IMG/VR virus record: IMGVR_UViG_3300006916_000041
Coordinates: 32,001-96,000 of that record
DNA: 64,000 nt
Source: a virus
Reading direction: 5' to 3' (one strand)
Shown here in pieces: positions 3,157-64,000 of the stretch. The translations under genes and the position numbers were made by a program. Below the pieces are notes generated by a model. That model worked only from the letters and a program-made list of their open reading frames with translations. It was not told the origin of the DNA and did not search any database. How positions within the stretch are numbered: the stretch's first letter is position 1; every line of letters begins with the position of its first letter.

Positions 3157-3721
3157 TTTGGAAACATTGGATACCAGTCCAAGATGCACCGTCCTCACAG
3201 TGGGCGGTGTAAAGTTTGATCCATACAGCACAAATGAACCTCACAGTGAATTTTATTTTCGTTTAGACTTAGATGAACAAGATCGTTTAGGACGCACAGT
3301 CACTGACGACACAATTGAGTGGTGGGCAAAACAGGATCCCCGAGTAAAAGAAGAAGCCTTTAGAGAAGACGACAGAGTCGGGCTGAAACACTTTCTAGAC
3401 CATTTAACCAAATGGATGGTGGGTGTCGATGTATTATGGGGACATGGATATGGTTTTGATGTTACTATTGTAGAAGATATGTATCGTCAATTGTCCACAC
3501 CAATACCTTGGAACTTTTGGCAGGTAAAAGACGGTAGAACATTTTTGAGTTTGCTGCCAAGTGATCCAAGGAAAACCATGCAACAGGATTTGCACAATGC
3601 ACTGGCTGACAGTTACTATCAAGCCAAAGCAATACAAATAGCCTACGCTAAATATGACGAGTGGACTAAACAGGGATCGACCCACTATAAACATTCCGCC
3701 CCCTCAATACAAGAGGTATAA
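3134..3721 (+). CDS. DEDD 3'-5' exonuclease (Rv2179c/ExoVIII-like)
   Basis: MIDLETL, FD, HNALADS motifs. Confidence 0.8.
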   Translation: MAIHGMIDLETLDTSPRCTVLTVGGVKFDPYSTNEPHSEFYFRLDLDEQDRLGRTVTDDTIEWWAKQDPRVKEEAFREDDRVGLKHFLDHLTKWMVGVDVLWGHGYGFDVTIVEDMYRQLSTPIPWNFWQVKDGRTFLSLLPSDPRKTMQQDLHNALADSYYQAKAIQIAYAKYDEWTKQGSTHYKHSAPSIQEV

Positions 3722-3722
3722 A

Positions 3723-4223
3723 ATGCAACCAGTAACATACAAATATGTAAGTACAAAAGAATATCACAATGCTTTCCCATGTGCGTATAGACAGTGGAAA
3801 GCTGACAGTCATTGTAATCAAATACATGGTTACTCATTTAGTATGAAGTTTTATTTTGGAACTGACACACTAGATGCTCGTAACTGGGTAGCTGATTATG
3901 GTGGACTAAGAGAACTAAAAGCTCAGATGGAAGATCAATTTGATCACACATTGTTGGTAGCAGAAGATGATCCTGAACTAGAACTGTATAAAACAATGCA
4001 AGAACGTGGCATTGCAAAACTAACAATTCTTCCACGTTTGGGTTGTGAAGGATTGGCAGATCAAATTTACAAATATGTAAATGGTGTTTATATTCCAGAT
4101 ATGTGGGGTCCGGCAGAAGCTGATCGTTTGTGGTGTTTTAAAGTAGAAGTGCGTGAAACAATCGCTAACATGGCATATCGTGAAGGCCATAGAGAATGGA
4201 ATGAAGATTTATTTGCGGAGTAA
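3723..4223 (+). CDS. queD: 6-carboxytetrahydropterin synthase / PTPS family
   Basis: CNQIHGYS, DYGGL, FDHTLL, EVRET motifs of the T-fold PTPS family. Confidence 0.8.
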   Translation: MQPVTYKYVSTKEYHNAFPCAYRQWKADSHCNQIHGYSFSMKFYFGTDTLDARNWVADYGGLRELKAQMEDQFDHTLLVAEDDPELELYKTMQERGIAKLTILPRLGCEGLADQIYKYVNGVYIPDMWGPAEADRLWCFKVEVRETIANMAYREGHREWNEDLFAE

Positions 4224-51834: not shown

Positions 51835-52538
51835 TGCTTGACTTAACAGTCATTGAAGTACAACATTATACAGACAAACTATTTAGAATAAGAACCGAAC
51901 GACCTCGCAGTTATAGATTTACTGCGGGCGAGTTTGTTATGATCAGTACTGTTGATGATGATACACCTAATAGAGCATACAGTATTACCAGTGGACCTTA
52001 TGACGACTACTTGGAGTTTTACAGTATCAAAGTACAAGACGGTCCATTAACCAGTCGACTACAACATGTGAGTGTGGGAGACAAAATACTAGTGGGAGAA
52101 AAACCCACCGGAACGCTGATACTTGCTAATCTGGAATTAGGTGGGCATTTGGTAATGATGGCTAGTGGTACAGGTATTGCACCTTTTATTAGTTTGTTGC
52201 GTGAACCAGAAACATATGACTTATTTGAAAACATCACTGTAACATGGACTACTAGAACACATTCAGAACAAGACTGCTACAGAGACTTTCTCAACGAAAT
52301 GCCCATTGAGTATATCAGCACAGTTACACAAGAACCTGCTGAACTGCAAGGACGCATTCAAAAGTTTATGGCAGACGGAACAGTTAAGATTGACAATCCT
52401 GAATATCAGCGTATAATGTTATGTGGAAGTATAGCATTCAACAACGACTTAAAAGAACACTTCGCTGCACTAGGGTTCAGTGAAGGCAACAAAAAAACAC
52501 AAGGTACGTTTGTGCAAGAAAGGGCATTTGTTAGTTAA
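51834..52538 (+). CDS. fpr: Ferredoxin-NADP+ reductase
   Basis: RAYSI, GPLTSRL, GTGIAPF, MLCGS, ERAF. Confidence 0.92.
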   Translation: MLDLTVIEVQHYTDKLFRIRTERPRSYRFTAGEFVMISTVDDDTPNRAYSITSGPYDDYLEFYSIKVQDGPLTSRLQHVSVGDKILVGEKPTGTLILANLELGGHLVMMASGTGIAPFISLLREPETYDLFENITVTWTTRTHSEQDCYRDFLNEMPIEYISTVTQEPAELQGRIQKFMADGTVKIDNPEYQRIMLCGSIAFNNDLKEHFAALGFSEGNKKTQGTFVQERAFVS

Positions 52539-55237
52539 TGTATGTAGACGCACTCATTGATAGAGACAAAGATATTATTCACGTTGTAGAACGTGTAAAT
52601 GGTAGACGAGAGTTCAGGGAATATCCTGCACGTTACTTGTTCTATTACAAAGACAGTCGCGGCAGTTTCGAAAGTATCTTTGGTGACAAACTACAACGTG
52701 TGGTCACTACTAGCGGTAAACAGTTCAAAAAAGAAAAGAAACTGTACAGCAATCAACGGTTGTTTGAAAGTGATGTCAACCCAGTATTTAGATGTTTGGC
52801 TGACAACTATTTGGGAGCGGATACTCCTAAACTACAACAAGCATTTTTCGATATCGAGGTTGACTTTGACAAAGACAAAGGCTTTGCAGATCCTAGTGAC
52901 CCATTCAATCCAGTAACCGCAGTTAGTGTACACTTGGATTGGATTGGCAAAACTATTTGTCTGGTTTGTAAACCCAAAACACTAACACGAGCAGATGCAC
53001 AACTTATTGTAGACAGGTTTGAGGATACTATTCTCATGGACACAGAAGATGAACTGCTGGATACATTCTTGCAGTTGATTGATGATGCAGATGTAATGAG
53101 TGGATGGAACAGTGAAGGCTTTGATATTCCTTACTTGGTGAATCGCATAGCAAGAGTTCTTGGCAAAGAACACACAAGACGTTTTTGTTTGTGGGGCAAA
53201 TATCCCAACAGACGAGAGTTTGAACGCTATGGCAAAGCACAAGAAACATTTGACACAGTGGGTAGACTGCATTTGGATTACATGGAACTGTATCGCAAGT
53301 ATACATATCATGAAATGCACAGTTATAGTTTGGATGCTATTGGCGAATATGAACTTGGCGAACGCAAAACAGAATATGAAGGCACACTGGATCAGCTTTA
53401 CAACAACGACTTTGAAACGTTTATTCAATACTCCAGACAAGACGTTGACTTGCTGGTACGTATGGACAAGAAGCTACAGTTTATTGATCTTGCAAACGTT
53501 ATTGCACATGACAACACAGTTCTTGTGCAAACAACCATGGGTGCGGTTGCTGTTACAGATCAAGCTATTCTCAACGAAGCACACAGTAGAGGACTTATTG
53601 TTCCTGACAAGCAACATGACAAAACACAAAAGCACTATCCACAAGCATGTACAGCGGCTGGTGCATATGTTGCTACGCCTAAGAAAGGCTTTCATGAATG
53701 GATTGGCAGTATGGACTTGAACAGTCTGTATCCAAGTATTTTGCGCAGTTTGAACATGAGTACAGAAACTATTGTTGGTCAAATTAGACACACACTGACT
53801 GTGCCAATGCTAGCAGAACACAAATGGGAAGTTGCAAAAGCGTGGGAAGGCAAATTTGCTTGTCGAGAATATGAACTTGTTATTGCTAAAGATGACGAGA
53901 CACTGCTATATATTGACTTTGAAAATGGCGAGGAACTGCAAGGCACAGGTGCTGAACTGTATCAAATTATCTTTGAAAGTGGGCAACCTTGGGTGCTTAC
54001 TAGTAATGGTACAATACTAGATCAAAGTAGAAAAGGCATCATTCCAGGCTTGCTAGAACGCTGGTATGCAGAACGTAAAGTACTGCAAAAGAACATGCGT
54101 GAGAATCAAGCGGCAGGTAACATTGAAGAAACTGCTTATTGGGACAAAAGGCAGTTGGTGAAAAAAATTAACTTGAACAGTTTGTATGGTGCGTTACTTA
54201 ACCCAGGCAGTAGATTCAATGATCCACGCATGGGACAAAGTACAACACTAACTGGTAGATGTATTGCAAGACACATGGGCGCCAAAGTAAATGAACTGTT
54301 TACAGGCGAATACAATCATGTGGGTCCTGCAATTATCTATGGTGATACAGACAGTGTGTACTTTAGTGCATATCCTATTTTTCGAGAACAAATTGAAAGC
54401 GGTGAGTTTGCTTGGGACAAAGACAAAGTCACTGAACTGTATGAAACTGTGTGTGAACAAGCCAATGAGACATTCCCTGATTACATGGCTAGAGCGCACA
54501 ACGTATTGGATCGCAAGCAAGGTGAAATTATTGCAGCGGCACGTGAAGTTAGTGCAACTGCTGGTATATACATCACAAAGAAACGCTATGCAATCCTAGT
54601 GTATGACAATGAAGGTCACAGAGAAGATAAAGATGATAAGCCAGGCAAGATCAAAGCAATGGGCCTGGACCTCAAAAGGTCAGACACTCCTGCGTTTATG
54701 CAAGACTTCTTGAATGAACTGTTACTCAAAACACTAACAGGTACAAGCGAAGAAGAGATTATTGAACGCATTATCGAGTTTCGTAGTGAGTTTAGAAACA
54801 TGCCAGCTTGGCTCAAAGGTACACCCAAACGTGTGAACAAACTTACACACTACTACAACAGTGAATATATGTTAGATCCTAAAACAGGAGATGAAGTATA
54901 CAAAGGCAAAGCAAACATGCCAGGTCACGTTAGAGCGGCTATCAACTACAATAGAATGCGTAGAATGAATGGTGACCGTTACAGCATGGAAATCATGGAT
55001 GGTATGAAGACCATTGTGTGCAAACTAAAACCAAATCCGTTGGGCTTTACTAGTATTGGTTATCCCACAGATGAAACTCGTTTGCCAGAATGGTACAAAG
55101 AACTTCCATTTGATACTGACACAATGGAAGAAGGTATTATTACAAAGAAGATTGAAAACTTGTTGGGTGTTATGAATTGGGACTTAACAAAAGCAGAGGA
55201 CAAAACTACATTTGATAGTTTGTTTGATTTTACTTAG
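52538..55237 (+). CDS. DNA polymerase family B
   Basis: FDIEV (ExoI), DLNSLYPS, KINLNSLYG, YGDTDS. Confidence 0.97.
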   Translation: MYVDALIDRDKDIIHVVERVNGRREFREYPARYLFYYKDSRGSFESIFGDKLQRVVTTSGKQFKKEKKLYSNQRLFESDVNPVFRCLADNYLGADTPKLQQAFFDIEVDFDKDKGFADPSDPFNPVTAVSVHLDWIGKTICLVCKPKTLTRADAQLIVDRFEDTILMDTEDELLDTFLQLIDDADVMSGWNSEGFDIPYLVNRIARVLGKEHTRRFCLWGKYPNRREFERYGKAQETFDTVGRLHLDYMELYRKYTYHEMHSYSLDAIGEYELGERKTEYEGTLDQLYNNDFETFIQYSRQDVDLLVRMDKKLQFIDLANVIAHDNTVLVQTTMGAVAVTDQAILNEAHSRGLIVPDKQHDKTQKHYPQACTAAGAYVATPKKGFHEWIGSMDLNSLYPSILRSLNMSTETIVGQIRHTLTVPMLAEHKWEVAKAWEGKFACREYELVIAKDDETLLYIDFENGEELQGTGAELYQIIFESGQPWVLTSNGTILDQSRKGIIPGLLERWYAERKVLQKNMRENQAAGNIEETAYWDKRQLVKKINLNSLYGALLNPGSRFNDPRMGQSTTLTGRCIARHMGAKVNELFTGEYNHVGPAIIYGDTDSVYFSAYPIFREQIESGEFAWDKDKVTELYETVCEQANETFPDYMARAHNVLDRKQGEIIAAAREVSATAGIYITKKRYAILVYDNEGHREDKDDKPGKIKAMGLDLKRSDTPAFMQDFLNELLLKTLTGTSEEEIIERIIEFRSEFRNMPAWLKGTPKRVNKLTHYYNSEYMLDPKTGDEVYKGKANMPGHVRAAINYNRMRRMNGDRYSMEIMDGMKTIVCKLKPNPLGFTSIGYPTDETRLPEWYKELPFDTDTMEEGIITKKIENLLGVMNWDLTKAEDKTTFDSLFDFT

Positions 55238-55246
55238 GAAATACTG

Positions 55247-55501
55247 ATGAACAATTTATATTTAGGACCGTTCACTATTACCTTGTTTGGTATAATGGTA
55301 TTTTCAACAGTATTTGTTTACCTTTTATTAGGAGACAAAGAAGAACAAAGAGATATAACCATGCATAGGACCTTAGTTAATATATTGTGTCTTGGTTGGT
55401 TTACAGTTGGACTACTAATGGGTGTACAAACATTTACCTGGGATACAATAGTTAGCTGCGAACCGCACTGGCTTTTTCCAAAGTTTTGTAGCAATGACTA
55501 A
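55247..55501 (+). CDS. Small membrane protein
   Basis: Two hydrophobic segments. Confidence 0.5.
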   Translation: MNNLYLGPFTITLFGIMVFSTVFVYLLLGDKEEQRDITMHRTLVNILCLGWFTVGLLMGVQTFTWDTIVSCEPHWLFPKFCSND

Positions 55502-55730
55502 GTTAGACTTACACGGAAAACATGTACACGAGGCATGGAAACTGGTTGACAGATTCCTCAGCGACTGTTATTATAAAAATATTAAACGCTGTGAAATTAT
55601 TTGTGGGCAAGGTATGATACGTAACGAAATGGAAACTTGGCTCCACCTAAATACTTTTGTACGAGAATACAGGTTTAACACTCGTACACAAGGTAGCTAT
55701 ACAGTAAACCTAAGGAAAAGGAAAAAATAA
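55494..55730 (+). CDS. Smr domain protein
   Basis: KLDLHG..V.EA, IICGQG. Confidence 0.8.
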   Translation: MTKLDLHGKHVHEAWKLVDRFLSDCYYKNIKRCEIICGQGMIRNEMETWLHLNTFVREYRFNTRTQGSYTVNLRKRKK

Positions 55731-56461
55731 TGCGAGATTATCTTAAAGATATTGTGCAACACACACATGGACTTGGATTCATTGACCAAGCAAAAGTTGT
55801 TAACGAAGATGGTACAACTAACTTAGAAGCTATGGACGATGATCGCACTGTGATTGTGCAAGCAAAGTTCAAAGAGCAAGTACCAGGCTTAGATGGCACA
55901 TTTGGTTTGCCCAATCTCAGCAAACTAAACGTTCTTCTAAACATTGAAGAATACAAAGAAAATGCAAACATCACTGTGAATACACAAGATCGCAATGGTG
56001 AAACTGTTCCATTTGGATTGCATTTTGAAAATGCAAACGGCGACTTTAAAAATGACTATCGCTTTATGAGCAAAGAAGTTGTTGAAGAAAAACTAAAAAG
56101 CGTTAAGTTCAAAGGCGTGAATTGGGATATTACTATGGCACCCAACAGCGCAAGCATTGCACGTTTTAAAATGCAAGCACAAGCCAACAGTGAAGAAACT
56201 GTTTTTGTTGCAAAAACTGAAGGCAATGATCTAAAGTTTTTCTTTGGTGATAGCAGTACACACGCAGGTAACTTTGTGTTTGCGGCAGGCGTTGAAGGTC
56301 AGTTGAACACCGGTTGGAGTTGGCCCGTAGCACAAGTATTGAGCATTCTCAACTTGCCTGGTGATATCACTATGAAGTTTAGTGATGCAGGTGCAGCAAT
56401 GATTACAGTAGACAGTGGTATGGCAACTTATGACTATATCCTGCCAGCACAGAGTAAGTAA
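55730..56461 (+). CDS. Sliding clamp (gp45/PCNA-like)
   Basis: 243 aa next to PolB; FGLPNLSKL, YDYILPA C-terminus. Confidence 0.65.
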   Translation: MRDYLKDIVQHTHGLGFIDQAKVVNEDGTTNLEAMDDDRTVIVQAKFKEQVPGLDGTFGLPNLSKLNVLLNIEEYKENANITVNTQDRNGETVPFGLHFENANGDFKNDYRFMSKEVVEEKLKSVKFKGVNWDITMAPNSASIARFKMQAQANSEETVFVAKTEGNDLKFFFGDSSTHAGNFVFAAGVEGQLNTGWSWPVAQVLSILNLPGDITMKFSDAGAAMITVDSGMATYDYILPAQSK

Positions 56462-58035
56462 TGATCCATAATGAACACACAGACTTAACAAGTACACAGG
56501 ACGACTTTGCTGTATTCTTGCCAGCACTGAGTACTTTCTACGCTCTATTTGTAGGGCGACAGCGGCGAGGCTTAGAACCATTAGATGAAAACAAGAAAGG
56601 TAGTGGGGAACCATATATCCCACTCGAGCGAATCCCCTCGCACCTCACCCATGGCGTAGAAAGTATCAACTGGCTTGCAAAGGAAGGCTTGTTTAGATAC
56701 AAGTGGAGTTTGCACAGTGCAGGACACGCAAGTCTTGATTTACAAAAAGACATGTACAGAGAAAGTCAGTACAGAGAGCGTGACAGAGAATACAGTTGGC
56801 TACTAGGCGACAGTGGAGGCTTCCAAATTGGTAAAGGCAAGTGGGAAGGTGACTGGCGCAAAGGTAGCGGCTGTCCTCAAGCACAAAAGAAACGTGATGG
56901 TGTTCTAAGATGGATGGATGCCTTTATGGACTATGGTATGATCTTGGATATTCCAGCCTGGGTTGCACGTAGTCCAGAAGGTGCGGCTGCAAGTAAAATC
57001 AGCAGTTATCAAGAAGCAGTAGAAGGCACACAAGAAAACAACGAATATTTTATCAAGCATCGTAATGGTAATTGTAAATTTTTGAATGTACTGCAAGGTG
57101 AAAACTTTGCACAAGCTGATGACTGGTACAATCAAATGAAACACTTTTGCGATCCCAAGCAGTATCCAGATGCACACTTTAATGGATGGGCTATGGGTGG
57201 GCAAAACATGTGTGACATTGAACTAGCACTCAAGCGATTAGTTGAACTAAGGCATGATGGATTGCTTGAAGAAGGACTACATGATGTTATGCACTTCTTG
57301 GGTACAAGTAAACTAGAGTGGGCATTGGTACTTACAGCAATACAGCGTGGTGTTCGCAAGTATCACAATCCTAAATTTACTGTAACATTTGATTGTGCAA
57401 GTCCTTTCTTGTGTACAGCAAACGGACAATTTTACACAAACTGGCGTTTGGATCAAGACAGCAAATGGAGTTACATGATGCAAGACGCTCCAGATGACAA
57501 AGCATATAAAAACAGTACAATGACATTTGATGACATGTGTACACAAATGTATCCAGAATTTCAAAGTAGTCCAATGAGCAAAGGACTTATGTTAAACGAC
57601 ATTTGTTATTATGCTCCAGGTGATAAAAATAGAATGGGTACCGAAACAGCTACAAGTTGGGATAGTTTTGCATATGCACTTATGATGAATCATAATGTTT
57701 GGACACACATTAAAAGTGTACAAGAAGCAAATCGTGCATTTGACCAAGGTCAGTATCCTAGTATGATGGTAGATACTAGCTTGGACAAAGTTGAAGTAGC
57801 TGATGTAGTTATGAGAGTTTTCGAAGAAAGCGACAAAGGAAAAGCCTTGCAAATTATCGAAGATCATCGTAAACTATGGATGAAAGTAATTGGCACTAGA
57901 GGACATGTTGGTAGAAAAACTATTAATGCCAGTGCGCAACTAGAAGCACACTTTGAAGGTGTTGAGTTTGCTGGTGCTAAAGAAAAAAGAGAGAAACCTC
58001 AATTAACGAGTAACTTTAATGCACTCTTTGACTAA
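56461..58035 (+). CDS. dpdA: TGT-family guanine transglycosylase (DpdA-like)
   Basis: GDSGGFQ, ILDIP, NVLQG, GWAMGG, HFLGT, TFDCASP. Confidence 0.8.
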   Translation: MIHNEHTDLTSTQDDFAVFLPALSTFYALFVGRQRRGLEPLDENKKGSGEPYIPLERIPSHLTHGVESINWLAKEGLFRYKWSLHSAGHASLDLQKDMYRESQYRERDREYSWLLGDSGGFQIGKGKWEGDWRKGSGCPQAQKKRDGVLRWMDAFMDYGMILDIPAWVARSPEGAAASKISSYQEAVEGTQENNEYFIKHRNGNCKFLNVLQGENFAQADDWYNQMKHFCDPKQYPDAHFNGWAMGGQNMCDIELALKRLVELRHDGLLEEGLHDVMHFLGTSKLEWALVLTAIQRGVRKYHNPKFTVTFDCASPFLCTANGQFYTNWRLDQDSKWSYMMQDAPDDKAYKNSTMTFDDMCTQMYPEFQSSPMSKGLMLNDICYYAPGDKNRMGTETATSWDSFAYALMMNHNVWTHIKSVQEANRAFDQGQYPSMMVDTSLDKVEVADVVMRVFEESDKGKALQIIEDHRKLWMKVIGTRGHVGRKTINASAQLEAHFEGVEFAGAKEKREKPQLTSNFNALFD

Positions 58036-58888
58036 AGCATTGATTGTAGGCACTGGCTTTGGCAGTCTCTACAAACAAATATACCAAGACATGAATGTTG
58101 CTGTAACCACAGTGGACATTGCAGATCCCAATGCCGACTATAAGCATGTGTATCAAGCACTGCAACAAGGTCTAGTGCATTGGGATGTATGTCACATTAC
58201 AACTCCAAACTACACACACTATCCACTAGCAGACCTTTGTGCAAACTTTTGTGACATTGTATTTGTTGAAAAGCCTGGTGTAGATGATCCAGAGCTTTGG
58301 GAAGAACTGTTGACAGATCATCCCAATACACGTATTATGATGACCAAAAACAATCAATACAGAGACAATGTACATCAAATACGTGAAGCAGCAAGTCAAG
58401 GTCAAGTGCGTATCAATTGGATCAATGACAACAGAGTACCCAAGCCAGGCAGTTGGTTTACTACAAAAAAACTAGCATTTGGTGGTGTGAGCAGAGACTT
58501 GATGCCACACTTGTTGAGCTGGGTACAAGTATTAGAACCAGACTGGTTGCATATGAAACCCAAGTTCAGTCGCTGTGATCAGAAATGGACATTACAACAT
58601 TTGACAGGAAGTGATTATGGTGCTATAAATTATAAAGGCACATATGATGTAGATGATATGTGTTACATTGATCTTGGTAGATACAATCTACACGCAGATT
58701 GGCGCAGCGGCACAGGAGACGACATTGCTATACACACAGACAAAGTTAGTTTTCAACTAGGACTATGTCCTGAAAGTGCATACGAAGCAATGATACGTAT
58801 TGCACACGAGAACCTAAATAATGATGAGTTTTGGAACAAGCAAAAGGACATGGATCTATGGATTCACCGGATCTTAAACAACCTGTAA
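58019..58888 (+). CDS. Gfo/Idh/MocA family oxidoreductase
   Basis: VGTGFG, ITTPNYTH, VEKP, GGVSRDLMPH. Confidence 0.85.
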   Translation: MHSLTKALIVGTGFGSLYKQIYQDMNVAVTTVDIADPNADYKHVYQALQQGLVHWDVCHITTPNYTHYPLADLCANFCDIVFVEKPGVDDPELWEELLTDHPNTRIMMTKNNQYRDNVHQIREAASQGQVRINWINDNRVPKPGSWFTTKKLAFGGVSRDLMPHLLSWVQVLEPDWLHMKPKFSRCDQKWTLQHLTGSDYGAINYKGTYDVDDMCYIDLGRYNLHADWRSGTGDDIAIHTDKVSFQLGLCPESAYEAMIRIAHENLNNDEFWNKQKDMDLWIHRILNNL

Positions 58889-59775
58889 GACAGTTAGTAA
58901 CCAGAGGCAATGGTGTATTCATCGAACAAGACTATTTGGTGCCCATGTTACTCAAAGATGAAATACGTGTTCGTGCAATAATGACAGGTGTTTGTCGCAG
59001 TGACATTGACATGATGACAGGTGACTTTACACTATTGCCCACAGAAATGCATGGACACGAAGGCTTGGGTCAAGTAATTGCAGTAGGCAATGATGTTGAT
59101 GATTGCGGAATTGGCGATTATGTTGCTACCAGAGGCGAGCCTGCATATGCAGATATTTACAATTGCAAGAAAGGCACATACTGTGTAGTTCCAGAAGCAC
59201 ATCCAGATTATATAATTGAACCTGTAGCATGTGCAGTTAACATGGAGTTGGTTTGTCAACAAGAACTTACGCAACGAGATGGCGGTAGAATGCTGATTAT
59301 TGGCACAGGATTTCTTGCTAGAGTATTTCACCAAACTGTAATAGAACAAGGATACGATTATCAAATTGATGTAATAGGCAAAAGCAATGCTGATTATTGG
59401 GGCACGGAAATGCTGGTTGACGGCAGCTATGCAAAGTATGACGTAGTAGTAGATCTCAAAGGTGAAGACAAAATTAAGTTTGTTAAAGTTAACCCTAATG
59501 CACTTGTGATAATGGCTAGTGCGCCGCACAGAGAATATAATTTTCCTCTCGAAGATTGGCTGTGGAATAATGTTACAATCAAAATGCCAAGTCCGAGAGC
59601 AGAAACATTTCACAGTGCTATGAAACTAGCAACACGCATGGTAGCTCAAGGAAAGATAGAGCTTGACAATGTATGGACACGTGAGTATAATAGAGAAACA
59701 AATTGGCAACAAGCATTCAGTGATGCACTAACTAGACCTGAAGGCTACAATAGAGGTTATATCAAATGGGATTAG
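58858..59775 (+). CDS. Zn-dependent medium-chain (polyol-type) dehydrogenase
   Basis: GVCRSD, GHEGLG, IEPVAC, GTGFLA; no structural-Zn Cys cluster. Confidence 0.85.
   Translation: MDSPDLKQPVRQLVTRGNGVFIEQDYLVPMLLKDEIRVRAIMTGVCRSDIDMMTGDFTLLPTEMHGHEGLGQVIAVGNDVDDCGIGDYVATRGEPAYADIYNCKKGTYCVVPEAHPDYIIEPVACAVNMELVCQQELTQRDGGRMLIIGTGFLARVFHQTVIEQGYDYQIDVIGKSNADYWGTEMLVDGSYAKYDVVVDLKGEDKIKFVKVNPNALVIMASAPHREYNFPLEDWLWNNVTIKMPSPRAETFHSAMKLATRMVAQGKIELDNVWTREYNRETNWQQAFSDALTRPEGYNRGYIKWD
59663..59691 (+). promoter_or_regulatory. Consensus sigma70 promoter inside CDS
   Basis: TTGACA-17-TATAAT, 75 nt before next ORF. Confidence 0.6.
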
Positions 59776-60278
59776 ACACAGACGAACGTCAGGACGTAGT
59801 TTATTTTATTGGCACAGAAGTTGAACGCACAGCAATGTATGGAGAAAAAACTCTGTTTGTGGTTGGTATTCAGCCTTGGGAAGATATCCAAAAACGTGCA
59901 GACGAACATGGCATTCGACATTTATATTTTGGTACCAGTCAAAGTTTTCATCCTAAAAACGATGAGGACTATGATATGTGGGAATCTATGATCAAACCTT
60001 TACTTAAACTAGGATACTGGTGTACATTAGACTTCGGTGTAGAGTATGCATCGGATGTACTTGAATGTGGGTTTGACGAACATGATAACTACATTAGTAT
60101 GATAAGTGTTAAACTTCCATACATTAAACAATTCAACTATAATGCAACACTTAAATTAGATGACACAACATGGGGTAAAAGCAATCCAGGCGTATGGTGC
60201 CACAGTGTGCATGACTTAATGGATCGCTCGGTTTACACAGACTGGCGAGACTATGTTGGTGATACGGTAATCGAATGA
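59766..60278 (+). CDS. Hypothetical protein in modification cluster
   Basis: EVERT...TLFVVG, HLYFG, KLDD....NPGVWCH. Confidence 0.65.
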   Translation: MGLDTDERQDVVYFIGTEVERTAMYGEKTLFVVGIQPWEDIQKRADEHGIRHLYFGTSQSFHPKNDEDYDMWESMIKPLLKLGYWCTLDFGVEYASDVLECGFDEHDNYISMISVKLPYIKQFNYNATLKLDDTTWGKSNPGVWCHSVHDLMDRSVYTDWRDYVGDTVIE

Positions 60279-60715
60279 ACGGAAATAAACGAATAGGATT
60301 TACATGTAGCACATTTGATTTGTTACATGCAGGACATATTGCTATGCTCAGAGAAGCCAAAGAGCATTGTGATTATCTTATTGTAGGGTTACAAACAGAT
60401 CCTACAATTGATAGACCAGATACAAAAAACAAACCTGTGCAAAGTTTAGTAGAACGCTACACACAATTATCAGGTGTAAAGTATGTGGATGAAATTATTC
60501 CTTATCAAACTGAACAAGATTTAGAAGATATACTAGCCATGTATCATATAACAGTAAGAGTTCTTGGTGAAGAATATCGTGAAAAGGAATTTACAGGCAA
60601 AGATGTTTGCCGCAAGCGTGGTATTGAATTATATTTTAACAAAAGAGATCATAGATTTAGTACTACAGATCTAAGGGAAAGAGTAAGTAATGAGCCCCGT
60701 GGAAAACCGCATTAA
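60275..60715 (+). CDS. TagD-like cytidylyltransferase (HxGH)
   Basis: FDLLHAGH, LIVGL, VDEIIPY, STT. Confidence 0.88.
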   Translation: MNGNKRIGFTCSTFDLLHAGHIAMLREAKEHCDYLIVGLQTDPTIDRPDTKNKPVQSLVERYTQLSGVKYVDEIIPYQTEQDLEDILAMYHITVRVLGEEYREKEFTGKDVCRKRGIELYFNKRDHRFSTTDLRERVSNEPRGKPH

Positions 60716-60866
60716 TAAACTTGTAAAAGAGCACAGAATGCTTGACACAGAAATAAAACGACTATACAATACAACAAATAGCGAAAAAACATTAAAAGCT
60801 ATGAAACAACGCAAACTCAAACTTAAAGATGAGATAACTAAACTCAAAGGAGATACAAATGGTTAA
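60690..60866 (+). CDS. YdcH/DUF465-like coiled coil (not in ORF track)
   Basis: EHRMLDTEI...KQRKLKLKDEI. Confidence 0.65.
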   Translation: MSPVENRINKLVKEHRMLDTEIKRLYNTTNSEKTLKAMKQRKLKLKDEITKLKGDTNG

Positions 60867-61086
60867 AAAAATTCGTGTATTAGACGAGCCAGTACAAGAA
60901 GTTTCAGAAGAAGTAACTTTGGAAACTATGCATGAACTGGCAAAGACCATGGATTGGAAGCTGTGGGAAATACTGCAAATTATGCAACGATTTGAAAAGA
61001 AAATCAGTGTGCTAGATGGTGCTGGTATACCAGATGAAGAAGTCAGTTCTAAACAATCGACAAAACCCAAAGTTGTTAAAAAATAA
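60859..61086 (+). CDS. Hypothetical protein
   Basis: MDWKLWE motif, AAGGAG RBS. Confidence 0.55.
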   Translation: MVKKIRVLDEPVQEVSEEVTLETMHELAKTMDWKLWEILQIMQRFEKKISVLDGAGIPDEEVSSKQSTKPKVVKK

Positions 61087-61550
61087 TGTTAGATCGAGTC
61101 GAACCAGAACGCTATTATGAATGGATGCTCTGGAAGATGAGACAGGAAGATGCAAAAATGCAAAAATTAAAAAAAACTAGTAGCATGATTTGGGTTACAT
61201 TTCGCAAAGAAGGTTTACACAAATATCCTGCGGCACTAGATGATCCGAAGCTAGCTACAGGCGGGGCAGATGATGTTAGCTTTTTAGGCTATATTCATAG
61301 ACACATGTTTCACTTTAAAGTTGCAATTGAGGTGTTTCATGATGATCGTGATATTGAATTTATACAATTTAAACGTTGGTTAGAGAATCTATATGCAGAG
61401 GGTACACTGCAATTAGATTTTAAAAGCTGTGAGATGATCTGCGATGATCTTGCAGAAAGTATTAACAACAAGTACCCGGGAAGAAAACTTAACATCACTG
61501 TCAGTGAAGATGGTGAAAACGGCGCAACCATTGAATACGAGGTATCATAA
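61086..61550 (+). CDS. QueD-paralogue T-fold protein, DpdL-like
   Basis: LGYIHRHMF, DRDIEF, SCEMI, VSEDGENGA. Confidence 0.65.
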   Translation: MLDRVEPERYYEWMLWKMRQEDAKMQKLKKTSSMIWVTFRKEGLHKYPAALDDPKLATGGADDVSFLGYIHRHMFHFKVAIEVFHDDRDIEFIQFKRWLENLYAEGTLQLDFKSCEMICDDLAESINNKYPGRKLNITVSEDGENGATIEYEVS

Positions 61551-61552
61551 TT

Positions 61553-61858
61553 ATGCGACAACACCGTATTAGTATTAACGATATTAAATACGATCTCATC
61601 AAGATCATCGAACCCCACGATGGTCGTTTGGAAACCAAAGAATCAGGTGGGGCAAAAGTTGAAAAACTTTTTGATTCTTATCTCAGAGATTTGCGCAGAG
61701 CTGGAATGATTCAACACTATGATATTGAAGTTACCCAGCGTCCTACAGCATTTACCTATGACGTAAGTGTTAAAGTAAATGCTGACAGAAGTCCTAAAAA
61801 ACTTAAAATACACGTTGGTGTATTTACACAACCTTGGACACAAAAGTCAGCAGCATGA
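61553..61858 (+). CDS. Hypothetical protein
   Basis: ORF in operon. Confidence 0.55.
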   Translation: MRQHRISINDIKYDLIKIIEPHDGRLETKESGGAKVEKLFDSYLRDLRRAGMIQHYDIEVTQRPTAFTYDVSVKVNADRSPKKLKIHVGVFTQPWTQKSAA

Positions 61859-62955
61859 CAGTCTATATTATAGATATCGAGGCTGTTGACACACGCTACA
61901 CTGCACAGTGGAAGGAACATCTTCCCGAGCAGTTGCGCAACCGCACTGATGATGTAGTTGTTATCAGCGGCGGGGAAACGCCTCAGGCTACTACGCCTGG
62001 GGCATTTCTTAATTTTGGAGGCACTAATGTATACAAATCTAATCAACTTGAGCAATTGGGTAGACTGTTCTGTGAAGGGAAAATTAACGATGGCGATTAT
62101 TTCCTTTACACTGATGCTTGGAATCCTACTGTTATTCAGTTACGATACATGGCTAGCCTTCTTGGCACAGATATTACTATCGGTGGCATGTGGCATGCCG
62201 GTAGCTATGATCCTCAAGACTTTCTTGGACGACTAATCGGCGATGCAGCATGGGTAAGACATGCTGAGAAAAGCATGTTCTGGTGCTATGATCACAACTA
62301 CTTTGCAACAGAGTTTCATTTAAACTTGTTTGCTGAGAACTTGCTAAACTACAAAGGTATGTTTGGTATGACAGCGGCAGAGACACTCAAAGACAGCAAT
62401 GATAATATTGTTATCACAGGATGGCCCATGGAGTATATGCAGGACATATTGCTTCCATATAAAAACATGGAAAAGCGTAACACAGTAGTATTTCCGCACA
62501 GACTAGCACCTGAGAAACAACTGGATATTTTTAAAGATTTGGCAACACAGTTACCAGAATACGAATTCATAGTTTGTCAGGAACAACAATTGACAAAAAA
62601 TGAATACCATAATATACTTGGTGAAGCTAAGGTAGTGTTTAGTGCTAACTTGCAAGAAACACTGGGTATTAGCGCATATGAAGGTGCGTTAGTAGGAGCC
62701 ATTCCTATGATGCCTAATAGACTCAGCTATACAGAAATGTATGATGACGAATTCAAGTATCCAAGTGAATGGACAGAAAGTTGGGATAGTTATCAAAAGA
62801 ACAAAACCAAGATTGTCCAAAAGTTAAAAAATTACATGGAAAATCACAATAATTATCACAACATGTTAAATACAGAGTCAGCACGTTTGACACAGAATTT
62901 TTTCAGTGGCAATCGTATGTATGACACAATAACACAAAGTGACACACCACTATAA
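61855..62955 (+). CDS. GT-B (GT4-like) glycosyltransferase
   Basis: FPHRLAPEK and ETLGISAYE (Ex7E), PNRLSYTEM. Confidence 0.85.
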   Translation: MTVYIIDIEAVDTRYTAQWKEHLPEQLRNRTDDVVVISGGETPQATTPGAFLNFGGTNVYKSNQLEQLGRLFCEGKINDGDYFLYTDAWNPTVIQLRYMASLLGTDITIGGMWHAGSYDPQDFLGRLIGDAAWVRHAEKSMFWCYDHNYFATEFHLNLFAENLLNYKGMFGMTAAETLKDSNDNIVITGWPMEYMQDILLPYKNMEKRNTVVFPHRLAPEKQLDIFKDLATQLPEYEFIVCQEQQLTKNEYHNILGEAKVVFSANLQETLGISAYEGALVGAIPMMPNRLSYTEMYDDEFKYPSEWTESWDSYQKNKTKIVQKLKNYMENHNNYHNMLNTESARLTQNFFSGNRMYDTITQSDTPL

Positions 62956-62968
62956 CTCGGAGCAATTA

Positions 62969-63652
62969 ATGGAAAAATCAAAAGAACTAAAGGCACGCCT
63001 TGACGATGCAGGCATTCGTTATTGGGCGGGCGATAATATCTCCTCAGTAATGCAACCAGGAGACAAAGAAGAACTTATCGAAGAACTTACAGATAAGTTT
63101 GAAGCAGTACTAGACAGTTTAGTAATCGACAGACACACTGACCCAAACAGTATGGATACTGGTCGTAGACTTGCTAAAATGTATGTTAAAGAACTGATGG
63201 CAGGACGTTATGATCCAATGCCCAATGCAACAGCATTTCCCAATCACACAAATGACAGGTACACAGGTATGCTAGTGGTTCGCAGTGAACTTGTTAGTAT
63301 GTGCAGTCATCACCATCAACCAGTAAAAGGAGTTGCGTATATAGGACTTATCGCAGCAGACACACTTATTGGGTTGAGCAAGTATACTCGTATTGCACAG
63401 TGGTGTGCAAGACGTGGTACATTGCAAGAAGAACTTGCAATGGACATTGCCCGCGAAATTATGAAAGCAACGGGCAGTGAAGATGTTGGCGTATATATCC
63501 AAGCAACACATGGTTGTTGTGAAAATAGAGGTATTATGGCAACTAGTAGTTTAACACAAACCACTGTACTCAAAGGCGCTTTTAACAGCGACATGGGTAC
63601 TAAAAAAGAATTTATGGACAATATTAAACTACAACAAGAATATACACGATAA
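62969..63652 (+). CDS. folE: GTP cyclohydrolase I
   Basis: SMCSHHHQP, GLSKYTR, LQEEL, HGCCENRG. Confidence 0.93.
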   Translation: MEKSKELKARLDDAGIRYWAGDNISSVMQPGDKEELIEELTDKFEAVLDSLVIDRHTDPNSMDTGRRLAKMYVKELMAGRYDPMPNATAFPNHTNDRYTGMLVVRSELVSMCSHHHQPVKGVAYIGLIAADTLIGLSKYTRIAQWCARRGTLQEELAMDIAREIMKATGSEDVGVYIQATHGCCENRGIMATSSLTQTTVLKGAFNSDMGTKKEFMDNIKLQQEYTR

Positions 63653-63702: not shown

Positions 63703-64000
63703 TTGAAACTATTTAAATTACTTACTGCCGCTTTAGTAGCGGCTGGTCTCTTTGTTTCTCCTGCAGCGTCGAAAGATAAAGTGAAAGTAGGTTTTATCTA
63801 CGTGGGACCAATTGGTGACCACGGCTGGACTTACCGACATGATATTGGACGTCAACAAGTAGAAGAAGCATACGGAGATCGTGTTGAAACAACTTATATC
63901 GAATCAGTACCAGAAGGTGCAGATGCTGAACGTGTACTAACACAAATGGCTCTGCAAGGACATGACATTATTTTTGCTACTTCATTTGGATATATGGATG
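63703..64000 (+). CDS. BMP-family ABC substrate-binding protein, 3' truncated (not in ORF track)
   Basis: TTG start; MKLFKLL...KVGFIYVGPIGDHGWTYRHDIGR...ESVPEGADAERV...IFATSFGYMD. Confidence 0.88.
   Translation, partial: MKLFKLLTAALVAAGLFVSPAASKDKVKVGFIYVGPIGDHGWTYRHDIGRQQVEEAYGDRVETTYIESVPEGADAERVLTQMALQGHDIIFATSFGYMD

Follow-up and report, generated by a model that had tools for sequence, protein, structure and literature searches.

A GT4-type glycosyltransferase linked to DpdL and a divergent DpdA in a jumbo phage locus, a candidate route to a glycosylated 7-deazaguanine in DNA

INTRODUCTION

The enzymes FolE, QueD and QueE convert GTP to 7-carboxy-7-deazaguanine (CDG). To our knowledge, the deazaguanines described in DNA all carry small groups at C7, and natural glycosylation of DNA is confined to pyrimidines, namely 5-hydroxymethylcytosine (hmC), 5-hydroxycytosine, 5-hydroxymethyluracil and base J. 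In phage phiST, one of the closest known systems to the locus analysed here, the DNA has been proven to carry 2′-deoxy-7-deazaguanosine (dDG), and DpdL, a protein defined by the change of the QueD motif CxxxHGH to LxxxHRHxF, is proposed to give rise to this base by decarboxylating CDG; expression of dpdL and dpdA alone in E. coli did not yield dDG, and the authors suspected that enzymes were missing (Cui, Hutinet et al., NAR 2023, PMC10516641). Here we analyse a window of 64,000 nucleotides (nt), bases 32001-96000 of the 172,409-bp IMG/VR virus record IMGVR_UViG_3300006916_000041, which is judged to be about 48% complete, and within it a run of genes at 56461-63652 that includes a DpdL homologue, a divergent DpdA-like transglycosylase and a glycosyltransferase (GT). 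The source genome is that of a jumbo phage, with almost every gene on the + strand.

Glycosyltransferases that accept 7-deazaguanine derivatives exist, but the products lie outside DNA: mannosyl- and galactosyl-queuosine (manQ and galQ) in tRNA are made by QTMAN and QTGAL, and huimycin and dapiramicin (HuiG) are glycosylated 7-deazaguanines. Within DNA, the systems that make T4 glucosyl-hmC and arabinosyl-5-hydroxycytosine share with the window the logic of making a non-canonical base that a phage enzyme of the GT-B fold then decorates, with sugar activation that is often phage-encoded and sugars that vary by lineage. For arabinosyl-5-hydroxycytosine, phage-encoded sugar activation beside the DNA GT, and a conserved transferase combined with lineage-specific donors, have been described (PMC13326640). 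These systems differ from the window in acting on pyrimidines that have a hydroxyl acceptor and are made at the nucleotide level, whereas the module considered here would insert a purine analogue by base exchange. Our literature search found no paper on a glycosylated deazaguanine in DNA or on a GT paired with DpdA or DpdL, and the suggestion made in an earlier sequence-only reading of the window, that such a base would be new, agrees with the literature searched.

RESULTS

The sequence-only reading had described eight named genes in one tightly coupled run, and all eight are present at 56461-63652 as + strand open reading frames (ORFs) with the same ends (Table 1). Each gene identity was checked by a Pfam or NCBIfam match, a profile, a motif or a predicted fold. 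Neighbouring genes overlap by 4-58 nt or are spaced by a few bases, and the single larger gap, of 143 nt, lies between the cytidylyltransferase gene and an ORF of 75 amino acids (aa) which, together with a second small ORF of 101 aa, was not in the earlier list of genes. A canonical QueD gene, expected near position 3723, was likewise found; its product matches TIGR03367 (E 4e-10) and is 53% identical to the QueD of Acidovorax phage ACP17. From its gene content, the run appears to form the bulk of a 7-deazaguanine DNA-modification module of the DpdL branch, and the computational analysis establishes both the identities of the genes and the dedicated linkage of the GT4-type enzyme to DpdL and DpdA.

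The protein described as a QueD paralogue in the sequence-only reading is indeed present, but that reading overlooked the DpdL branch to which it points. It carries the exact DpdL signature (L67-GYI-H71-R-H73-M-F75), which is kept across 14 aligned sequences including those of phiST and ACP17. In tblastn comparisons it is 58% identical to ACP17 DpdL (E 8e-39) and 31% identical to phiST DpdL (E 7e-8), and it matches phrog_17812 (E 1e-34). BLASTP of the window DpdL against QueD found no similarity, and the connection between the two proteins is drawn from the published DpdL motif. A search of the genome for queE, queC and queF, as the sequence-only reading had suggested, recovered a divergent QueE at genome positions 103010-103903, 7 kb past the end of the window, with 30% identity to the QueE of Pseudomonas phage PA5oct and sub-threshold matches to five QueE models, but no convincing QueC or QueF in this record. 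The lone QueC-like match, 26 kb beyond the window, is a 186-aa PP-loop ORF that corresponds to the C-terminal end of QueC only (34.5 bits) and is probably not a working QueC. With no convincing QueC or QueF in a record judged about 48% complete, the pathway of the window probably belongs, from its genes, to the DpdL branch. With FolE, QueD, the divergent QueE, DpdL and a TGT-fold DpdA all encoded, the proposal of a 7-deazaguanine DNA-modification locus is upheld.

Two neighbourhoods of these distal genes deserve mention. A full-length S-adenosylmethionine (SAM) synthetase gene (MetK, genome C1:103975-105063) lies directly after the divergent QueE and probably supplies SAM for the radical-SAM step. 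After the QueC-like ORF (genome C1:122093-123183), and at the edge of a radical-SAM island, comes a gene for an Asp/Asn beta-hydroxylase-like protein.

Comparison with phiST shows a common framework of FolE, QueD, QueE, the DpdL signature, a transglycosylase-superfamily inserter and a location in the vicinity of replication genes; no convincing QueC was found in either, in the case of the window within the available half genome. The two systems differ in that phiST has a short DpdA3 (259 aa) and lacks both the GT4 enzyme and the 170-aa protein, whereas the window encodes a 524-aa DpdA with a GT4 enzyme and sugar-activating genes embedded in the module. The arrangement in ACP17 is a single run of QueD, FolE, a homologue of the 170-aa protein, DpdA, GT (40% identical), DpdL (58%) and QueE, in which the DpdA, GT, DpdL and QueE genes overlap or abut, and in which DpdA belongs to another clade than that of the window. 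PA5oct encodes the DpdA-like protein (29%), GT (49%) and DpdL (57%), followed by QueE. Both phages lack the Gfo, medium-chain dehydrogenase/reductase (MDR) and cytidylyltransferase set within the stretches examined. PA5oct DNA is known only by its resistance to restriction enzymes with G-containing sites (PMC12191111).

To describe the conservation of the module, we used a DpdA-anchored survey of 67 IMG/VR loci and a DpdL-anchored survey that returned at least 594 IMG/VR loci, of which the best 80 were examined. The conserved set in the 67 DpdA loci consists of the DNA polymerase, a 243-aa protein, DpdA, the 170-aa protein, DpdL, the GT and FolE. The GT gene immediately follows dpdL in 71 of the 80 DpdL loci and a DpdA of the window type is present in 75; three of the 80 are loci with a phiST-type DpdA3, and none of these has the GT. 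Every one of the 18 cultured-phage records in which the GT has a long match (at least 77% of the query) encodes DpdL as well, and the GT-DpdL-DpdA combination recurs, frequently with overlapping frames, in at least seven phage groups from different families. The GT gene adjoins both partners in PA5oct, ACP17, BUDD, BCSR5 and BUCT-ZZ01, and in Sinorhizobium phage Phosso the GT and DpdL genes are adjacent with DpdA far off. The GT, DpdL, a window-type DpdA and QueD are also encoded chromosomally in Magnetospirillum aberrantis SpK and M. sulfuroxidans J10. In SpK these genes form an island (L196:5173-10902, on a 424-kb contig) comprising a CoiA-like nuclease of 519 aa, the GT, DpdL, a DpdA of 536 aa that is without the phage polymerase-like tail described below, and QueD; a HEPN_LA2681 gene and a two-component pair lie upstream of the island. 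The arrangement resembles a defence island, in a restriction-modification-like use of the same module by a culturable bacterium. The synteny survey suggested in the sequence-only reading thus ties the GT to the deazaguanine locus, the GT keeping DpdL and DpdA as neighbours across unrelated phage lineages and in bacterial islands, but does not do the same for the Gfo and MDR genes, which occur in just 10 of the 80 loci. Other phages have DpdL but not this GT, namely the phiST group, D479, RHph_I1_18, Ahp1 and Bakedbeans. In the last of these, a Vibrio phage, DpdL makes up the C-terminal 120 residues of the 383-aa protein gp176 (L174:5218-6369), the N-terminal 260 aa of which had no match among the proteins compared; gp176 is possibly a naturally fused protein, hinting at a partner of DpdL.

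The predicted structure of the GT (Table 1) identifies it as a divergent family within the GT4-type GT-B enzymes. The top match of the model is the GT4 enzyme 7qsg, with a Z score of 21.6 and a root-mean-square deviation (rmsd) of 3.3 Å over 308 aligned residues, and further structural matches include BshA, MshA, PimB', LmbT, the tetrahydrobiopterin (BH4) glucosyltransferase and the DNA arabinosyltransferase of phage HY126. Pfam Glycos_transf_1 gave 16.4 bits with the window protein, below its cut-off of 26.4, and matched 12 of 20 members of the family at E 0.1 or better, the best at 4e-4. The enzyme looks catalytically active, as judged by the motif E275-x7-E283 and the phosphate-binding R223 and K228, which are invariant in 20 sequences. 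Assignment to the QTMAN/GTDC1 type was rejected: the corresponding N-terminal domain, PF12038, found nothing at E 10 anywhere in the record, and the FPHR..PEK stretch of the GT is a general GT4 nucleotide-binding motif. A conserved peptide, NFFSGxxLY, considered as a docking peptide, was also discarded, being inside a predicted helix and not C-terminal.

The first gene of the run encodes a 524-aa protein which, both as a single sequence and as a family profile, matched nothing in Pfam, PHROGs, NCBIfam or PDB sequences; the Pfam model for tRNA-guanine transglycosylase (TGT), PF01702, did not match it even at E 10. An AlphaFold model built with 22 metagenomic homologues (predicted local distance difference test, pLDDT, 85.8) has the TGT fold, since Foldseek returned TGT enzymes as all of the top 50 matches (prob 1.0) and VIA, too, matched it only to tRNA-guanine transglycosylases, with a Z score of 18.6 and an rmsd of 4.6 Å, with 309 of 361 residues aligned. 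Residues D117 (LGDSGGFQ), D163 and D311-C312 (TFDC) are invariant among the 23 members of the family, and by motif only we take them to be the equivalents of Asp102, Asp156 and the Asp280-Cys281 nucleophile motif of TGT (Z. mobilis numbering). A check for the zinc site found conserved columns without CxCxxC, the conserved Cys and His residues being just C312, C382, H411 and H416. The hhalign comparison of the family with ACP17 DpdA is weak (E 0.07), yet the motifs line up. Because the model has a TGT fold but the protein has no PF01702 or PDB sequence match, we file it, on its predicted structure, as a divergent DpdA-like subfamily outside DpdA1 to DpdA4.

Cultured phages with the same type of DpdA are the PA5oct group, Phosso and Vibrio phage 2.275.O, and both here and in relatives the DpdA-like gene is accompanied by the 7-deazaguanine synthesis genes for FolE, DpdL and QueE. 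In Vibrio phage 2.275.O it adjoins QueF, QueC and Gat-QueC. Right after the DpdA-like gene of this preQ1-type module, gp469 (370 aa, L016:10732-11844) occupies the position of the GT; the GT profile found no match to it.

Disorder is predicted for the C-terminal 45 residues of the DpdA-like protein, whose terminal peptide (Table 1) resembles that of the phage DNA polymerase, TTFDSLFDFT. Among 549 ORFs of at least 60 aa in the whole record, the polymerase and the DpdA-like protein are the only two with this motif at the C-terminus. The two tails co-vary in other phages, ACP17 having PSLDDLFE in the polymerase and TTLDELFE in DpdA, and Vibrio phage 2.275.O having NNTDLFDW and NNNDLFGW, respectively. 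The DpdA proteins of BUDD and BUCT-ZZ01 end in comparable peptides, and in PA5oct DpdA an LFD motif is retained, with an acidic extension after it. The gp45 clamp is the binding partner of the polymerase tail in T4 and RB69. Since DpdA copies the C-terminal peptide of the polymerase, it probably docks on whatever partner the polymerase binds, which in T4-like systems is the sliding clamp, and would thus work within the replisome at the replication fork on newly made DNA.

Three genes of the run are candidates for supplying a sugar donor. The Gfo/Idh/MocA oxidoreductase falls below the Pfam cut-off as a single sequence (E 1e-3), and a profile of 13 homologues matched the glycoside 3-oxidase DgpA (6e-11) and about 40 more entries of the Gfo/Idh/MocA type in PDB. 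The MDR gene always accompanies the Gfo gene, and its product contains the zinc-ligand motifs GVCRSD, HGHE and EPVAC as well as GTGFLA. The cytidylyltransferase has HAGH at residues 18-21 and RFSTT at 126-130; in PDB it is closest to ethanolamine-phosphate cytidylyltransferase (1e-20) and to TagD, which acts on glycerol-3-phosphate (5e-15), and in PHROGs and NCBIfam it leans to the heptose-1-phosphate adenylyltransferase domain (phrog_7878, E 2e-36), with no equivalog cut-off met. From these matches it probably activates a sugar- or alcohol-phosphate as a nucleoside diphosphate (NDP) derivative. Sister loci have other genes in the same place: one (L033) encodes a short-chain dehydrogenase/reductase (SDR) of the epimerase/dehydratase type, a uridine diphosphate-sugar dehydrogenase, a PurT-like ATP-grasp protein and a DegT aminotransferase, and another (L036) a phosphomannomutase, an SDR and the nucleotidyltransferase. 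In a third (L064:16923-18361), DpdL and the GT are separated by a pair that hints at a sulfated decoration, an adenylylsulfate (APS)-kinase-like P-loop protein and one with a weak likeness to sulfotransferases. Such variation in the sugar genes is in keeping with a conserved transferase that draws on donor pathways specific to each lineage.

The 170-aa protein is encoded near the core of the module and has a homologue in ACP17 (E 4.5e-25). No family was found for it in Pfam (searched with 23 members), in a PDB profile search or in any library. A profile search of 5.8 billion proteins found at least 7996 related clusters, and none of the 120 listed has a functional name or a Pfam domain. Two ESM Atlas look-ups scored 0.89 and 0.78 at best, below the level of trust.

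Upstream of the run, the window is collinear with PA5oct across the family B DNA polymerase, the 243-aa protein and the DpdA-like protein. The polymerase is conserved upstream of the DpdA-like gene in the 67 DpdA loci, and the 243-aa protein that lies between them is a virion protein in PA5oct. A Smr-domain protein of 78 aa (51.7 bits) is encoded at window positions 55494-55730, between the genes for the polymerase and the 243-aa protein, and only closer relatives keep the Smr gene. Downstream, a 7-kb lineage-specific insert separates FolE from QueE. Its first gene encodes a PnrA/Bmp-like nucleoside-binding protein (full ORF at genome positions 95703-96794; PF02608, 172.8 bits), and the insert contains in addition three 2-oxoglutarate (2OG) oxygenases, two phosphoribosyltransferases, a thymidine kinase and a truncated NDP-sugar dehydrogenase. 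We considered the three 2OG-Fe(II) oxygenases as makers of a hydroxyl handle and rejected them as passengers, given that they are present in 7, 0 and 1 of 147 related loci. The sole widespread gene of the insert, in 85 of the 147 loci, encodes a xanthine-guanine phosphoribosyltransferase (XGPRT)-like protein. Elsewhere in the genome, 17 radical-SAM domain matches are found on the minus strand over about 40 kb (genome C1:123000-162000, 27-66 kb past the window end).

Megablast of the region against cultured phages gave no match, and a scan of the region for promoters and terminators found nothing decisive, with 38 promoter-like sites compared with 26 ± 5 expected. A perfect sigma-70 consensus (TTGACA, 17 nt, TATAAT) is located at window positions 59663-59691, inside the 3' end of the MDR gene and just before the gene for the 170-aa protein.

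Table 1. Genes of the modification locus and its setting, in window coordinates.
Feature	Position	Strand	Remarks
QueD, 6-carboxytetrahydropterin synthase, apart from main run	3654-4223	+	PTPS, PF01242, 56.9 bits (cut-off 22.4)
Family B DNA polymerase, context gene	52538-55237	+	DNA_pol_B 115.6 bits
Divergent DpdA-like DNA guanine transglycosylase (predicted), 524 aa	56461-58035	+	TGT fold; disordered linker ending SNFNALFD
Gfo/Idh/MocA oxidoreductase, closest to glycoside or sugar 3-dehydrogenases	58019-58888	+	Accessory gene
Zn-MDR, medium-chain dehydrogenase/reductase	58831-59775	+	ADH_N 39.9 bits; accessory
170-aa protein, no assigned fold or function, near-core	59766-60278	+	66/80 DpdL loci
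Cytidylyl/adenylyl-transferase, TagD/ECT/RfaE-domain-II family	60275-60715	+	CTP_transf_like, PF01467, 58.3 bits (cut-off 21)
75-aa ORF, no assigned function	60859-61086	+	Seen only in closest relatives
DpdL, QueD-like T-fold paralogue, putative CDG decarboxylase	61086-61550	+	LxxxHRHxF signature
101-aa ORF, no assigned function	61553-61858	+	Seen only in closest relatives
GT4-type GT-B glycosyltransferase, core partner of DpdL and DpdA	61834-62955	+	Model pLDDT 81
FolE, GTP cyclohydrolase I	62939-63652	+	PF01227 130.7 bits; NF006824 E 8e-41
PnrA/Bmp-like nucleoside-binding protein, gene start	63703-64000	+	Runs past window end

DISCUSSION

The gene content suggests a pathway in which FolE, QueD and the divergent QueE make CDG from GTP by well-known steps, and DpdL would convert it further, by decarboxylation to 7-deazaguanine if the proposal in the literature holds. 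The divergent TGT-fold DpdA, docked through its tail at the partner of the polymerase, would then swap guanine for the new base in newly made DNA, the guanine released probably being salvaged by the XGPRT-like phosphoribosyltransferase. The GT4 enzyme would glycosylate the deazaguanine, as a free base ahead of its insertion or once it is in DNA, and the resulting glycosyl-deazaguanine would block restriction. The Gfo, MDR and cytidylyltransferase proteins, or other sets in sister phages, are predicted to build the lineage-specific activated sugar. The sequence-only reading had the two redox enzymes and the cytidylyltransferase in this role; a variable donor set would fit it, but these genes are not conserved with the core, and the idea that they form a fixed part of the system is contradicted by the surveys.

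We favour a glycosylated deazaguanine because the linkage of the GT to DpdL and DpdA is repeated, the GT is absent from the plain-dDG system and the sugar genes diversify, and because G is modified in PA5oct (PMC12191111) and the published reconstitution with dpdL and dpdA failed (PMC10516641). A hydroxymethyl-pyrimidine, considered as an alternative acceptor, was rejected: the sole thymidylate-synthase homologue in the genome fragment is a canonical ThyA (PFNIASY), and no such acceptor is in sight. Judged from the genes, the chance that phage DNA contains such a base is about even. The fuller picture, in which the DNA of PA5oct, ACP17, Phosso, BUDD, BCSR5, BUCT-ZZ01 and some Magnetospirillum carries a sugar-7-deazaguanine made by a clamp-docked exchanger that trails the replication fork, with sugars swapped between lineages (candidates being polyol or heptose-like, uronic amide, and amino or sulfated sugars), falls slightly short of even.

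Several observations weigh against a sugar on the base. The known product of the DpdL branch, dDG, has no obvious attachment point, as 7-deazaguanine lacks a hydroxyl and the acceptor would have to be N2, the C7 carbon, the carboxyl of CDG or some other product of DpdL. The GT is very acidic (pI 4.9, net charge about -19), has no polymerase-like docking peptide and finds its closest structures among GT4 enzymes with small-molecule acceptors, features that also lend no support to the order of events in the sequence-only reading, in which the sugar is added after base insertion; being acidic and without a docking peptide, the GT may act on the free base. The Gfo and MDR genes are confined to some sublineages, the cytidylyltransferase gene shifts position among sister loci, and the 50-kb radical-SAM island of the same genome could also use activated sugars. 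Finally, the gp45-type clamp models PF09116 and PF02916 had no match in this half genome.

Some of these points would be accommodated if the DNA carried plain dDG, as in phiST, and the GT acted on a small molecule of the pathway, for example in forming a transient glycosylated intermediate needed by DpdL or the long DpdA, or in handling a by-product, so that no sugar reached the DNA. The likeness of the GT to the small-molecule enzymes BshA, MshA, LmbT and BH4 glucosyltransferase and the missing handle on dDG favour this explanation, as does the failure of ACP17 dpdL and dpdA in E. coli without the GT gene that lies between them. However, phiST makes dDG without this GT, and lineage-variable aminotransferase, ATP-grasp and sulfotransferase-like genes typify an exposed final decoration under diversifying selection; we consider plain dDG unlikely, but to be taken seriously. 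It is distinctly improbable that the GT and sugar-nucleotide genes serve virion proteins or the host envelope and are co-located through shared timing of expression. The 17 radical-SAM matches, a sign of heavy investment in glycan chemistry by the same genome, and the mobility of the Gfo, MDR and cytidylyltransferase genes within the lineage are compatible with such a role, but it does not account for a GT that adjoins DpdL and DpdA in at least seven cultured phage groups and in bacterial chromosomes and accompanies DpdL in every phage record with a long match, nor for the placement of the module among replication genes rather than structural genes. The combination of FolE, a PTPS-like enzyme and a GT also recalls the cyanobacterial biopterin glucosides, and a glycosylated pterin might be the product in place of a DNA base, given that T-fold proteins bind pterins and BH4 glucosyltransferases match the GT structurally (Z 18.2). 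These enzymes rank just 39 by Z score, however, and the module conserves QueE and a TGT-fold enzyme with a polymerase-like tail, which makes this last explanation highly implausible.

The module is very common in marine viromes, as judged by the number of DpdL loci in IMG/VR and of protein clusters related to the 170-aa partner, and is carried by PA5oct, a candidate therapeutic phage. Several phages with these genes are available as cultures, which puts the predicted base within reach of a test. Either the GT or the 170-aa protein may be what was missing from the published dDG reconstitution, and the tail shared with the polymerase suggests a route by which a post-replicative base exchanger could achieve complete replacement. 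If our prediction is correct, the product would be a glycosylated purine analogue without precedent in any genome, uniting the themes of DNA glycosylation and deazaguanine modification in a new class of base, with a bearing on the evasion of restriction and CRISPR, on sensing by type IV and END-type defences and on artefacts in sequencing.

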